DNA from: a virus
Lineage: Duplodnaviria > Caudoviricetes
Length of the DNA stretch: 64,000 nucleotides
IMG/VR virus record: IMGVR_UViG_3300025723_000013
Strand: one strand, 5' to 3'
Each line of letters begins with the position of its first letter. Within the stretch, counting starts at the first letter, position 1. The notes beneath the pieces were generated by a model. That model searched no databases and was not told where the DNA came from. It saw only the letters and a program-made list of their open reading frames with translations. The position numbers were made by a program, and so were the translations under genes. Positions 8,110 through 58,316 of this stretch are shown here, in pieces.

Positions 8110-8397
8110 TTATGGGCTTGGCGATATCAATTGTCTAATGCGTTCTAGTTCAATGTCGGGAGTTTGTTCGGCGCCGTGTGTGGGTTCGCTCTTGGTCAGC
8201 TTGCTGATCACCGGGCTTTCTTTGCCCAAGGTGGCTTTGGCCAACTCTAATCCCTGCTGCAATGGAGCCACCATGATGGGATTGTTGTGTAGTTCATCTT
8301 CATCGGGCGTGATCTGATCCATTTCCAATTCAGGATCCCCATCTCCGTTGATCTTGATAGTGATGGGAACGTTTATGGTAAATTCTCTTGCTCTCAT
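8110..8397 (-). CDS. Small protein with MRAREF leader; paralog of 11264-11584
   Basis: Shared APLQQGLELAK / PPLQSKIELLK and ELERIRQL / ELDRVRKI motifs; ATAAATA box at 8403-8409. Confidence 0.75.
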   Translation of the reverse strand: MRAREFTINVPITIKINGDGDPELEMDQITPDEDELHNNPIMVAPLQQGLELAKATLGKESPVISKLTKSEPTHGAEQTPDIELERIRQLISPSP

Positions 8398-8405
8398 AGT
8401 GCTAT

Positions 8406-11252
8406 TTATGCTGCTCCCGAACAGTTCATGTAGACACCACTGGTGGCTGTGGTTGTGCAGATAAACTCCACAATGGCCACACTGCCATTGGAGTTGCCTC
8501 GGAAACTGGCCGATCCATTGGTGCTGTTGGCGGCTGTTAGTCCTGTGATGCTGACAGTGGTAGCACCTGGGCCAGTCTTCATGTTCACTGCCATCACGCG
8601 CACGATTTTGCCAGGCACCGGATTGGTTATGGTGATGGTGAAACTGGCCTGGCTGTTGTCCAAAATAACCAGTCCCGATGATGTGCTCAAGTTCAGGGTA
8701 TAGGCATTAGACACCACCGTGATGGGTCCGGTAACAGAGTTGTAGTTGTTTATGGTATGTGCAGCGCTGCCATCGTAGGTGGATCCAGATTCTAATGCCA
8801 GACCAAATCCCATTGTGAGCGCATTGGCCACTTTGGTTGCTGTCACTGCATTGGCCACTAGAGTGGCTGTATTGAAACTGTAGGCATAACCTGCATTGGT
8901 AGCAGTGGAAGCAGACACTGCATTGGCCACTAGGGTGGCTGTATTGAAACTGTAGGCATAACCCGCATTGGTAGCGGTAACAGCCGACGCCATTAAGGTG
9001 GCTGTGTTAAAACTGTTGGCATAACCAGCTGTGATGGCATATGTGGCAGTATTGGCCAATTGACTGGTACCAATTATGGTGCTGCTTACTGTGAGGCTGG
9101 ATAACACACCAACACTGGTAATATAGGGCTGCGCACCGATATTGACTGTGCCTGCTACCGAAGCCGAAGCTGCATTGCCGTTCAGTGAAGCAGTGATAAC
9201 ATTGGCTGAGAAATTGCCGCTGCTGTCTCGAGAAACAATAGTTCCAGAATTATTGAAACTGGTAGCATCCGATGTAACGATTATGATGCCACTTGACGTG
9301 TTGACACTGATATGATTGGTGGCAGAAATACTGGAGAATATAGACACCGGAGGCACATACTGCCAAGAGCCATTGCCATATATGACAAATCCACCTGCTT
9401 GATAATTCACGCTGCCTGTCTGCGTGCCCAAATTCTGTGTGCCACTTACACCTATGGAATATTCAGTACCTGAACTCACCGTGGTGGTATTATTAGTAAG
9501 AGGAGGTTGATTAGTGCTGGCATTCCAACTGCCCGCATATTGCACTCCTCCCAACAGGCTGGAGGGAATTTGAGAGGCCGACAAGTGCCCGGTGCTGTCC
9601 AATGTGGCCACGCCACTGCTAGCGCCTCGTTGTGCCAGAGGAATAGCAGCAGAAGTTTGCAATGTGTTATCAGAAAATTTAATGCCTAGTCCTGGAGTAG
9701 GTATCGTGATACCAACGGTGCTGTCGATGTAGGCGCTGATTACTCGGTTGGCTTGGCCTTGAGGACTGTTGTAAAACTGATGTTGGCTGCCCTGTGTGCT
9801 GGTGGTCCAAGCATCCAATCCCACAACATCGAGGCTGCTATAGGCTGTTTGTCCAGCCACACCAAACGCTGTGCTGGTGTTGTACCCCACGCTTGAGATG
9901 CGTGATATCACAGTACCAGGAGAGGTAGCTGACGGTGAGGCTGCTGTGCCTAGACCAGAACGCAGCACCAGCGTACTGAAATTGCCAAAAGCGTCGTTAA
10001 CGATACGGCTGGCATATCCATCATTGCCTGTGATGTGCAACATACCACCAGCATTGGTCACAGGAACCGTGATACCACTGGTGCTGCCTATGATGGATAA
10101 CGCTCCAGTACCGCCTGCCGGCACCAAGGGAGCAAGCATTTGTAAAAATCCGTTGCGCTGTATCGACATGGTTAACACATTGGCAGCATTATAAAAATTG
10201 GCCTGTCGATAGATATTAAATGATCCCGTGTCTGGTAAATTGCCCACATTGATATTGAGATCAGGAGTGGTGGTTTGCAATGTGGTGTTGTTGATCACTA
10301 GATTGCCCAATGCAATACTTTGTGCGCCATTTAAAAATATTGTTCCGCTGTTGACCGATATGGCTACATCAGCCAAGGTACTTTGATCCTGCAGATGTAT
10401 GCTGGACGGACCAATGTAGACATTGCGCCATCTAGTGGAAGTGGTCCCTAGATCCAACTGATTGTTGCTGGCGGGCGCGAGCAACGCAGCTATTGTTATG
10501 GCACTGTTGGTAACAGTCATGACCGGAGCTATGGCGCTGGTGGCATTGTTGACAGGAGTGGTCCAGAATGTGATTTTGCTGCCGCCATTGCTAACAGTTT
10601 GTAGGCCCAGGGCAGTGTAGGCCATGCGAGCATTGCCTGTGGTAGGGATCAGCGTGCCGTTATAGGCACTGCCGCCATAGCGAACCATGTCCTCACCGTC
10701 CTGCACTGCGGTGGGTGCGCTGATGGTTCCGTCGTATCTACGACCCGTATACACAGCATAACTGCCTTCGCTGTCGTTGTAGATCCTGCTGGATATTCCA
10801 GGATTGCCCGTGACCTGTAGCATGACGCCGCTGTTGATAGGGGCAAAACTGGCGCCATTGCTGCTGCCTATGATTTCAAAAGCCGAGTCAGATACATTTT
10901 GTTGTGCCGCATAGAAATTGACAAATCCATTGTTTGGCACCTGCATGATCAATGTGTTTGAAGGTGTGACCACATTGAACGCGCCTGTGACCTGCACAGT
11001 GCCTGTGCCATTGGATACTAGGTAGAGATTTTCATTAGGATTGATAGTAGATATAGAAGCCCCAGCTATGACCAAATCACCAATACTGGCTGTGGTCACA
11101 GCTATAACCGCAGGCAACCCACCAGGAGTCACACCGTCGCTGACCCTTAGTCCTGTTACAGGATCATACCAAAGTCGGCCTATTTGACCAACAAATGTAG
11201 CACCGTTGGCATTTTTGAGATCAGTGAATAGTTTTTGTATCGGTGTGCCCAT
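8406..11252 (-). CDS. Tail fibre/structural protein
   Basis: 948 aa S/T/G/N-rich; GRLWYDP..GLRVSDGVTPGG N-term like 7395 gene; internal 60-bp duplication (FNTATLVANAV) near 8840-8990. Confidence 0.75.
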   Translation of the reverse strand: MGTPIQKLFTDLKNANGATFVGQIGRLWYDPVTGLRVSDGVTPGGLPAVIAVTTASIGDLVIAGASISTINPNENLYLVSNGTGTVQVTGAFNVVTPSNTLIMQVPNNGFVNFYAAQQNVSDSAFEIIGSSNGASFAPINSGVMLQVTGNPGISSRIYNDSEGSYAVYTGRRYDGTISAPTAVQDGEDMVRYGGSAYNGTLIPTTGNARMAYTALGLQTVSNGGSKITFWTTPVNNATSAIAPVMTVTNSAITIAALLAPASNNQLDLGTTSTRWRNVYIGPSSIHLQDQSTLADVAISVNSGTIFLNGAQSIALGNLVINNTTLQTTTPDLNINVGNLPDTGSFNIYRQANFYNAANVLTMSIQRNGFLQMLAPLVPAGGTGALSIIGSTSGITVPVTNAGGMLHITGNDGYASRIVNDAFGNFSTLVLRSGLGTAASPSATSPGTVISRISSVGYNTSTAFGVAGQTAYSSLDVVGLDAWTTSTQGSQHQFYNSPQGQANRVISAYIDSTVGITIPTPGLGIKFSDNTLQTSAAIPLAQRGASSGVATLDSTGHLSASQIPSSLLGGVQYAGSWNASTNQPPLTNNTTTVSSGTEYSIGVSGTQNLGTQTGSVNYQAGGFVIYGNGSWQYVPPVSIFSSISATNHISVNTSSGIIIVTSDATSFNNSGTIVSRDSSGNFSANVITASLNGNAASASVAGTVNIGAQPYITSVGVLSSLTVSSTIIGTSQLANTATYAITAGYANSFNTATLMASAVTATNAGYAYSFNTATLVANAVSASTATNAGYAYSFNTATLVANAVTATKVANALTMGFGLALESGSTYDGSAAHTINNYNSVTGPITVVSNAYTLNLSTSSGLVILDNSQASFTITITNPVPGKIVRVMAVNMKTGPGATTVSITGLTAANSTNGSASFRGNSNGSVAIVEFICTTTATSGVYMNCSGAA

Positions 11253-11263
11253 TTAACGCCCCG

Positions 11264-57189: not shown

Positions 57190-57431
57190 AGATCTTTTTT
57201 CCATTTCAATATAAAATAAGTGCCGGCAAAAGATCCAATCATGACCGCTAGAATATAATGATGATCTTCAACGTAAGAGATAGCACTGTAACTGCCGCAT
57301 AACATGATCAAGCTGCTCCATGTGGCTGCCTTCAATGCATTACGTTTTCCGGTTTCAATAAAATACATGGTCCAGCATATATCAGCTAGCGCAACCAGGA
57401 TCATAACAAATAAAAATTTTGCATAAAACAT
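57186..57431 (-). CDS. Small multi-TM membrane protein
   Basis: 81 aa from MFYAKF, three hydrophobic segments. Confidence 0.65.
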   Translation of the reverse strand: MFYAKFLFVMILVALADICWTMYFIETGKRNALKAATWSSLIMLCGSYSAISYVEDHHYILAVMIGSFAGTYFILKWKKDL

Positions 57432-57491
57432 GTGTCTATTATAACACAATATCGGTCTAGTGTACATCTATCTTTCAGCATAAATATCGTA

Positions 57492-58316
57492 ATGCATATA
57501 CGTGATATACTGTTAGAACTCGATAGTCGCAAAGCTGCGGTCATATACGGACCTCAATTGATTCAACGCTATTATGGTAATGAAGCGATTTTGAAATATA
57601 AAATGCCTGAAGCTGAACTGAGTGCTTATATCATAAGACAGTTGGCAAAGAAAGACCCTACTACTAATTTGAAGTATCTTACTTGGATCATAAGAGAATA
57701 TATCCAAGGAAGAATAGACCTTGGTCACGATTATGATGACGGTCACGACAATGATGGATTGTATAGATTGTTGAGAAAATTTGATGAGGCCAAAAAGAAA
57801 AATAAAATCAAACCACAATTACGAGATATCAATAAATTTACTATTGATCAATTCAAACGGTTAGGAAAGGTAATAAACTCAAAAGAACAAAGAGATTACG
57901 TAAATTTTAGAAATGCATTTTTTAATACAGTAGTTCCGGATTTGAAAAAAACAGCGCATGAATCGTTAAGACAGGCCCTGATTGAAGCTAACCAATCATT
58001 AGAGAATCAAGATTTTGAACATTTTTATGATTTGATGCAGACATGCAGAAATATCAAACAGACCATCGTTATGATGGATTCCCAATCATTGATACATGAT
58101 ATAAGGTCGCCTAGCAATCCAATTTTTCAACTGATCAATAAAGCGGTAAGGAAAGTCTCTCCAAATATAGAAGGATTATCTCGACCTGATGGCGGTATTG
58201 ATTACGGTTGGTGGTTTTCCAACATTATCAAGAACGGAAAAAAAGGAACGCACTATCAAAAAGTTTTGACCAATCTGCGCCAAATTTTGTTATTCACACC
58301 CAATCACTGGCGGTAA
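57492..58316 (+). CDS. Hypothetical protein (MHIRDILLE leader)
   Basis: KDPTTNLKYLTWII..Y, RDINKF; ATAAATA-N5-ATG (box 57480-57486). Confidence 0.7.
   Translation: MHIRDILLELDSRKAAVIYGPQLIQRYYGNEAILKYKMPEAELSAYIIRQLAKKDPTTNLKYLTWIIREYIQGRIDLGHDYDDGHDNDGLYRLLRKFDEAKKKNKIKPQLRDINKFTIDQFKRLGKVINSKEQRDYVNFRNAFFNTVVPDLKKTAHESLRQALIEANQSLENQDFEHFYDLMQTCRNIKQTIVMMDSQSLIHDIRSPSNPIFQLINKAVRKVSPNIEGLSRPDGGIDYGWWFSNIIKNGKKGTHYQKVLTNLRQILLFTPNHWR

Follow-up and report, generated by a model that had tools for sequence, protein, structure and literature searches.

Bacteriophage T4 marks its internal proteins (IPs) with a capsid targeting sequence (CTS; Mullaney & Black 1996; reviewed in PMC9026906 and PMC3012670). 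This 10-residue propeptide, which gp21 cuts off, is enough to bring foreign proteins into the head; an Asp at residue 10 of the IPIII CTS, the cleavage position, blocks cleavage and leaves targeting intact (PMC9026906). T4 Alt loses only six residues, being cut at ITE-6 (PMC5694885). The present analysis concerns a short N-terminal leader of similar appearance, carried by late genes in IMG/VR record IMGVR_UViG_3300025723_000013. The stretch analysed, 64,000 nucleotides long and called the window below, is part of a large tailed phage (Duplodnaviria; Caudoviricetes), and eleven of its otherwise unrelated proteins begin with the leader. With a probability of roughly 0.7, this leader is a capsid-targeting and cleavage peptide of the T4 type whose cargo set has expanded.

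In T4, a like N-terminus is also found on gp24, gp67, gp68 and Alt, which are head-core or vertex proteins and an injected enzyme. The phiKZ-like phages (SPN3US, phiKZ and 201phi2-1) offer a more distant parallel, as many of their inner-head proteins are cut after Glu by a gp21-related protease and their propeptides are thought to target proteins to the prohead (PMC5694885). Most of these propeptides exceed 100 residues, and their cleavage site is (S/A/G)-x-E, whereas the window leader is short, with Leu or Ile at the P3 position of the site. The literature searched contained no description of a CTS for Rak2/GAP32/CBB-type or freshwater T4-like jumbo phages, and a review of T4-related genomes does not mention the CTS at all.

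A shared N-terminus on unrelated proteins

Leader carriers are named here by the position of their start codon (Table 1). All eleven N-termini listed in the original prediction were found where it had placed them, on the strands it had given, and they share the consensus M-[RKL]-[LIA]-x-E-[FLI]-[FLI]-x-[E/T/P]. The bodies behind the leader are unrelated, as had been proposed: when the first 12 residues are left out, BLASTP detects no similarity between any two of them (best E 0.17). The guanine-plus-cytosine (GC) content of these bodies spans 0.35-0.64, and the isoelectric point (pI) is at least 9 in nine of the eleven members, compared with 30% of the window's genes.

A strict pattern derived from the window itself, M-[RKLTH]-[AILV]-[RQNHS]-[ED]-[FLIM], matches 11 of the 2,247 ATGs in its six frames, and all 11 are plausible gene starts. 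Counted by position, the pattern occurs at 10 of 163 gene-like starts and once among 2,090 ATGs elsewhere (Fisher p 3e-11). Since the pattern is window-derived, enrichment was also measured in two independent relatives, G001 (5/317 gene-like starts versus 1/6,533 elsewhere; p 1e-6) and G002 (6/501 versus 4/9,197; p 3e-6), so that gene-start enrichment ranges from about 40 to 120-fold over the three genomes.

A coincidental resemblance between a few N-termini has in its favour that the motif is short and was defined post hoc. It is refuted by the scan of window ATGs, in which the 2,236 others yield no strict match, and by the enrichment in two relatives that played no part in defining the motif; its probability is close to nil. 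A generic habit of phage N-termini was likewise rejected, because the pattern is not enriched in G004, a more distant 149-kb T4-like phage (p 0.24), and has only two gene-like-start matches in phage CBB; the strict-pattern rate is 0.25-0.3% in CBB and G004 versus 6% in the window.

Comparison with the capsid-targeting peptides of T4

In the T4 record, IPII and IPIII start with MKTYQEFIAE, IPI with MKTFKEF, gp24 with MAKINELLRE and gp68 with MLLIPETHE. The window leaders MRAQEFITE and MRINELLTE are one residue shorter and again carry two Glu residues four positions apart, at 5 and 9 rather than at 6 and 10. The core Q-E-F-I-x-E is nearly identical between MKTYQEFIAE and MRAQEFITE, and the 28792 leader MRINELLTES parallels MAKINELLRES of gp24. 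In both systems the N-terminal peptide, about ten residues long, precedes late proteins that are mostly basic and otherwise unrelated. It closes with an (L/I)-x-E site for a gp21-family protease, and its cargo set is hypervariable among related phages. The systems differ in scale and expression: T4 has three IPs plus Alt, whereas at least 11 carriers lie within 64 kb here, and the T4 ip genes have Shine-Dalgarno (SD) sequences, whereas most window carriers are leaderless behind a late promoter. The window cargo, in contrast to the T4 IPs, includes enzyme-like proteins, and this system is known from its sequence alone.

Residues 3-5 of the leader read L/I-x-E in six members, A/V-x-E in four and I-x-D in one, and thereby appear to match a gp21-type (L/I)-x-E site. 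A second hydrophobic-x-E follows at residues 8-11 in 7 of the 11 members. The original prediction had placed cleavage after the second Glu; it may instead fall after Glu5, because Glu5 with Leu or Ile at position 3 is the invariant part of the leader. The propeptide site of the major capsid protein gp23 was considered as a further comparison with T4 and set aside: the alignment begins only past this site, and the LAE|A assignment is one that we infer.

The same start on a head-core protein

Exact-protein look-ups, made stepwise along a 284-kb ENA contig, led to the head module. This contig is a close strain rather than the same molecule as the window, since the two differ at 3.9% of positions over a 12-kb overlap. 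Its head genes are ordered portal, 81-amino-acid (aa) protein, 376-aa acidic protein, Peptidase_S77 protease, scaffold and gp23, an order shared by G001 and by the 291-kb contig L116; a prohead protease, T4-type portal, scaffold and gp23 were found through the ~96% identical contig, G001, L116 and Stenotrophomonas phage RAS14. The G001 capsid protein shares 68% identity with its counterparts in T4-related jumbo phages of the Rak2/GAP32/CBB group. In the close-strain contig, an intein is present in the portal gene (L121 910-3849; Portal_T4, Intein_splicing, Portal_T4), and the protease is 211 aa long (L121 5383-6018).

The 81-aa protein begins MLLREFIYF behind ATAAATA-N5. It has at least 238 homologues, and all 120 of those listed begin M-x-L-x-E-F-[ILM]-Y. 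The family is phrog_13986, annotated as of unknown function, and this MLLxEF protein occupies the slot of T4 genes 67 and 68, between portal and protease; the equivalence is positional only, as no sequence homology to gp67 or gp68 was detectable. The positional counterpart in CBB, CBB_253, begins MLDEIFEA. Past the gp23 terminator of the close-strain contig lies a 61-aa Cys-rich gene that starts MRIHEIITE behind ATAAATA-N4.

In three phages the 81-aa gene reads ATAAATA-N5-ATG-CTA-YTW-ARR/AAC-GAA-TTC, and the 41413 nuclease gene of the window reads ATAAATA-N5-ATG-CTA-TTA-CGT-GAA-TTA. Because these arrangements match, the cargo leader is the head-core gene's own start, promoter geometry included.

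Such identity would also be expected if the leader were a functionless hitch-hiker, carried along in a promoter-plus-start cassette reused from the head-core gene or inherited by paralogous descent. Head-core and cargo genes do share ATAAATA-N5-ATG-CTA-TTA-Arg-GAA-TT, the heterogeneous GC of the bodies suggests acquired genes, and remote paralogy is possible between 8397 and 11584 and between 39738 and 53233. Yet synonymous sites have diverged, with switches between Arg codon families, while the residues are kept, and orthologues at 30-46% identity retain the pattern. The peptide is also kept by members that lack the promoter, and in the kinase family described below it persists at 25-35% identity among 149 representatives although the linker behind it varies. 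Passive carriage is accordingly improbable.

Leader ends and polyprotein module boundaries

Four small basic modules, DUF6321, ENFADG, LCRS and KCW, occur in the window as leader-tagged stand-alone genes. In relatives and cyanophages the same modules lie within larger proteins, each after a hydrophobic-x-E tripeptide: DUF6321 is preceded by ISE, LDE, VSE or TNE, ENFADG by ISE, LPE, VHE or AQE, KCW by LNE, IAE or FQE, and LCRS by FME (G001) or LDE (G002 and L007). L007 and G002 repeat a linker, GVAE, between modules. In the window the leader's last Glu falls at the module boundary, as it does in L018, where MRATEFITE passes directly into DUF6321. These boundaries suggest that the prohead protease cuts the leader off.

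In cyanophages the family that contains these modules is T4-GC119, of which Syn9 gp114 is one example. The S-B43 record labels its member (AYR01718) a structural protein, and T4-GC119 was detected with 13 peptides in purified S-SM1 virions (PMC3037559 Table S8). It shares the KCW and DUF6321 modules with the 36668-37393 protein of the window, but there they form one polyprotein encoded between terminase genes, whereas the window has separate genes, each with its own leader. The annotated GTG start of Syn9 gp114 (L108 2915-4246) is doubtful; begun at an internal Met, the protein would read MPPTYNEIFNE, similar to MKTYQEFIAE of the T4 CTS. Two leader-tagged enzymes of relatives (L002 1587-2297 and L018 7192-8109) both end in the ENFADG module; the ENFADG-fused enzymes comprise one dCMP_cyt_deam_1 protein (E 3e-8) and one HAD-phosphatase-like protein (E 1e-4).

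A T7-type kinase homologue among the leader proteins

The original prediction had called one body kinase-like, and this description was confirmed for the 29060 protein. A profile built from the window protein and its length-filtered listed homologues was run against T7 gp0.7, a seryl-threonyl protein kinase, and matched it with an E value of 6e-12; the aligned elements include the G-loop, the catalytic loop (D-x-H-x-x-N-x-M) and I-T-D-P. Searches of the PDB by sequence returned nothing for this protein, and a word-index search returned near-identical copies only; the Atlas comparison, with values of 0.97 for features and 0.67 for TM, is consistent with a kinase fold. The protein has 237 distant relatives, and one orthologue lies in L122, a contig syntenic with the window. 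Whether this copy is an active kinase is uncertain, because no Pfam kinase match appears even at E 10 and an Arg replaces the Lys conserved in the family.

The structural match begins at residue 16-23, which places the leader outside the kinase fold. Among the 149 listed representatives of the family, 120 (81%) carry the leader with the consensus M-K/R-L/I-x-E-I/L-I, and Leu or Ile at position 3 and Glu at position 5, which correspond to P3 and P1 of the gp21 site, are near-invariant. The loose pattern used for this count matches only 1-6% of gene-like starts in general. T7 gp0.7 is made early from the injected genome, whereas the 29060 protein carries the leader, is late and is presumably packaged beforehand; restricting a host-takeover kinase to late synthesis would make sense if it were carried into the next cell. 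In the 21.6-kb contig L123, two divergent leader-tagged kinase paralogues stand side by side (5447-6881) and adjoin a run of nine genes of similar size (150-196 aa) on the opposite strand. RAS14 has a kinase homologue that begins MKLIDLFED behind an ATAAATA box, and at least three further open reading frames of this phage have leader-type starts.

Peptide-level or nucleotide-level constraint

An xTAAATA box lies 4-8 nt upstream of the ATG in eight of the eleven members (spacers 4, 5, 5, 5, 5, 6, 7 and 8). Since the T4 late box TATAAATA covers -13 to -6 (PMC2988020), a 5-nt spacer would set +1 on the A of the ATG and yield leaderless mRNAs. The TATAAATA-like boxes of the window, ending about 5 nt before the ATG, are thus predicted to start transcription on or next to that A. 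A ninth member, 26065, has a gap of about 36 nt between box and ATG, and 11584 and 37393 are coupled to upstream late genes; from this promoter consensus, late expression alongside the head genes is predicted for the set. The earlier statement that 26065 and 37393 are not leaderless was correct for both, but the count of two was too low, as 11584 is a third.

The association with leaderless starts is strong: the leader is found on 8 of about 12 such starts and on 3 of about 153 other starts in the window (Fisher p 7e-9). It could therefore be an RNA- or DNA-level signal, such as an initially transcribed sequence or a leaderless-initiation element, with the peptide as a by-product. Codon 5 is GAA in all 10 window members with Glu at this position and GAATT is frequent, yet GAA makes up 74% of Glu codons genome-wide, so that ten out of ten has p ~0.05, and a nucleotide-level constraint on GAA, GAATT or TTR Leu codons was rejected as not significant against genome codon usage. 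Two leaderless late genes of the window, 8084 and 62640, lack the motif, and besides the three window members, the majority of carriers from G001, G002 and other loci either start behind an SD sequence or are translationally coupled. Arg codons switch between families (AGA, CGT, CGA, CGC), which points to selection on the residue, and codon 5 in relatives may be GAG, GAT or GAC. The retention of the peptide in the distant listed kinase homologues (120 of 149) also speaks against a nucleotide signal, which is rated marginally less probable than the functionless hitch-hiker. Because Arg codons switch, codon 5 varies in relatives and several carriers are not leaderless, the constraint acts on the peptide, in agreement with the original prediction.

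Weighing the capsid-targeting reading

A peptide-level constraint would equally suit a tag with a non-capsid role, for instance in recognition by a phage chaperonin, at the membrane, in other late assembly or in protein stability and degradation. Conservation of the peptide on unrelated bodies is compatible with any of these, and its amphipathic pattern is generic. Such a role nevertheless fits poorly with the closeness of the leader to the experimentally defined T4 CTS and the gp24 propeptide, with its invariance on the 81-aa protein, whose gene lies between those of the portal and the prohead protease, with the agreement of positions 3 and 5 with the P3 and P1 preference of the protease, and with leader ends at polyprotein-module boundaries in a family found in virions. 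It is unlikely, though the strongest of the alternatives.

Several observations weigh against the capsid-targeting reading. P3 or P1 is non-canonical in five members; among them, position 3 is Ala in 8397 and 37393 and Val in 11584, rather than Leu or Ile, and 57492 has Asp5, a residue that at the T4 cleavage position blocks cleavage and not targeting. The second Glu is not conserved: 39738 and 53233 have Asp8, and position 9 is mostly Pro or Thr in the kinase family. T7 gp0.7 is not packaged and yet begins MNITDIM, so that a loosely similar start can arise without targeting; a homing-endonuclease-like nuclease would also be odd cargo. Enrichment of the pattern is low in the cultured relatives whose capsid proteins are similar (CBB p 0.02) and likewise in RAS14 (p 0.01), and CBB_253 is not annotated as structural in the CBB record. 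The window itself contains no protease or head gene, so that the link runs through the ~96% contig and relatives, and docking, cleavage, retention and injection of the leader proteins are steps that we infer.

Capsid targeting and cleavage remains the best explanation of the leader. It is supported by the likeness to T4, the Peptidase_S77 protease of the close-strain contig, the leader on the head-core gene, the hydrophobic-x-E boundaries of the polyproteins and the presence of T4-GC119 in cyanophage virions. Under this explanation, the genes would be transcribed late from gp55-type TAAATA promoters, mostly as leaderless mRNAs, and the N-terminal peptide would dock each new protein onto the assembling prohead core, as it would on the 81-aa core protein. 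The gp21-family (Peptidase_S77) protease would then cut after Glu5 ([L/I]-x-E), after the hydrophobic-x-E at residues 8-11, or after both, and the mature, mostly basic proteins would stay beside the DNA inside the head and accompany it into the next host. The leader proteins, including the kinase, are thus probably packed into the virion and injected. The predicted cargo comprises the gp0.7-type kinase, the basic Cys-rich modules (DUF6321, ENFADG, LCRS and KCW), the helix-turn-helix (HTH) nuclease, two DUF6934-like proteins that are possibly GNAT-like, and several orphans.

By analogy, the mechanism itself would be the one already known from T4. New features are how large the cargo set is and what it contains, the identity of the tag with the head-core start, the fusion to a leaderless late promoter and the alternation of modules between polyproteins and single genes. 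A further proposal, offered tentatively and less likely to hold than to fail, is that a unit of about 45 bp, TAAATA-N5-ATG-M-L/R-L/I-x-E-F/L, acts as a portable expression-packaging cassette copied from the head-core gene, with which a large injected arsenal is built. Placed before any acquired gene, it would turn the product into pre-loaded injected cargo, and the lineage could carry a given module either within a polyprotein or as a gene of its own. In the window such an arsenal would contain the T7-type kinase, the HTH-nuclease, the DUF6934-like proteins, DNA-binding mini-proteins and perhaps a superoxide dismutase (SOD), and in relatives a cytidine-deaminase-domain protein and a HAD phosphatase.

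Members of the set and their surroundings

Table 1. Leader-carrying genes of the window, two doubtful members and other genes lying among them
Leader or N-terminus	Coordinates	Strand	Product	Late box or start context
MRAREFTINV	8110..8397	-	95-aa acidic protein, pI 4.6	ATAAATA at 8403-8409, 5-nt spacer, leaderless
MKVSELMRAL	11264..11584	-	106-aa acidic protein, pI 4.2	ATG overlaps the stop codon of the gene for the 746-aa virion protein; translationally coupled
MRAQEFITE, then LCRS module	25817..26065	-	82-aa basic protein, pI 10.3	ATAAATA at 26102-26108, ~36 nt upstream; not leaderless
MRINELLTES	28439..28792	-	117-aa protein	ATAAATA at 28799-28805, 6-nt spacer
MRIHELFEA	29060..29785	+	241-aa T7 gp0.7-type protein-kinase homologue	ATAAATA at 29049-29055, 4-nt spacer
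MRAQEFVGE, then KCW module	36668..37393	-	241-aa basic protein, pI 10.5; weak DUF6943-like stretch plus C-terminal DUF6321	ATG overlaps stop of the 37587 gene (ATGA)
MTLRELLALFE, then ENFADG module	37390..37587	-	65-aa very basic protein, pI 11.7	ATAAATA at 37593-37599, 5-nt spacer
MLLRELLDRP	39738..40193	+	151-aa protein	ATAAATA at 39724-39730, 7-nt spacer
MLLRELFIQE	40190..41413	-	407-aa HTH plus Vsr/MTES_1575-like nuclease	ATAAATA at 41419-41425, 5-nt spacer
MLLREMFDRP	52820..53233	-	137-aa basic protein, pI 10.9	CTAAATA at 53242-53248, 8-nt spacer
MHIRDILLE (Asp5)	57492..58316	+	274-aa basic helical protein	ATAAATA at 57480-57486, 5-nt spacer
MLPDIRSLITLVES (doubtful member; no motif match)	56038..57189	+	383-aa protein	
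MYNFIKYVTES (doubtful member)	25136..25690	-	Fe/Mn superoxide dismutase with ~18-aa N-terminal extension	
	37607..38548	-	TauD-family dioxygenase, among leader genes	
	39040..39702	+	Methyltransf_24 methyltransferase, among leader genes	
	58623..59306	-	weak nucleotidyltransferase-like protein, among leader genes	

The two acidic members, 8397 and 11584, are closer in appearance to components of the head core than to effectors. The L009 orthologue of 8397 begins MRAREFTINI, and orthologues of 11584 begin MKISDII and MKASEIL with different codons. Near the C-terminus of the 11584 protein, VRKIAGL resembles IRKLAGLK, the invariant C-terminus of the scaffold in an alignment of G001 (L055 4621-5712) and L121 6033-7127; this likeness suggests a head-core role for 11584, though the gene lies among fibre genes.

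Family searches with the 28792 protein gave no match. The Atlas model of 39738 is similar to viral clusters of the DUF6934 type and, less strongly, to GNAT folds. The 53233 start is an internal ATG of a longer open reading frame and was picked from its promoter and its likeness to 39738. For 57492, the single-sequence AlphaFold2 model was unusable (pLDDT 48) and Atlas gave nothing. The 41413 protein contains a near-identical tandem duplication of a unit of about 55 aa; public data hold a 352-aa variant without the duplication, and a word-index search returned near-identical copies only. Of the body assignments made earlier besides the kinase, the nuclease label for this protein is retained on weak Pfam and PHROG matches, and the LETM1-like label was not supported.

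The 56038 protein and the SOD, which had been put forward as related members, do not match the motif and are weak candidates for the leader. In their favour, homologues of 56038 in G001 and G002 begin MRARDF, MKLSQV and MKTLDL, and the SOD extension is kept in the G002 orthologue (249015-249560), where it reads MYNFIRYVSLNE behind ATAAATA-N5. The SOD gene lies downstream of the 26065 gene on the same strand, and the phage SOD may be late-expressed and packaged.

The window also has genes for two collagen-like fibre proteins (1,085 aa and 2,387 aa), for an ATP-dependent DNA ligase and a DnaB-type helicase, and for the 746-aa virion protein, which is ~36% identical to structural proteins of T4-like cyanophages. 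For comparison, 51 related viral contigs were recovered. By megablast, the 7-kb fibre gene had no nucleotide match in the phage collection, and a 41-mer from the window's end had none in the viral or metagenome contig collections. At 33631-36110 (+), a run of small genes repeats the junction (T)TTGGAGTTGAAnA-ATG, so that the upstream genes share an ...FGVE tail whose coding sequence doubles as a source of SD sequences; these genes may be tandem paralogues. The region 41500-53000 has a GC content of 0.54-0.57, versus 0.38-0.49 elsewhere, with short + strand genes behind AAGGAG SD sequences, and looks like acquired DNA. It is flanked by two MLLRE-leader genes, 41413 and 53233.

Implications for giant T4-like phages

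The finding ties together a capsid-targeting tag, the phrog_13986 head-core protein and leaderless late mRNAs, and RAS14 is a cultured phage in which the idea is testable. Tags of this kind underlie the loading of foreign proteins into phage heads, already done with T4. If the capsid-targeting reading is true, the cargo would exceed the T4 paradigm of small inhibitors plus Alt and would include a T7-type host-takeover kinase made late, with deaminase-domain and phosphatase-like enzymes predicted as cargo in relatives. A ten-residue tag would then provide, from sequence only, a list of head-carried, injected proteins across an uncultured clade of giant T4-like phages, and injected head proteins are the first phage molecules to face host defences.

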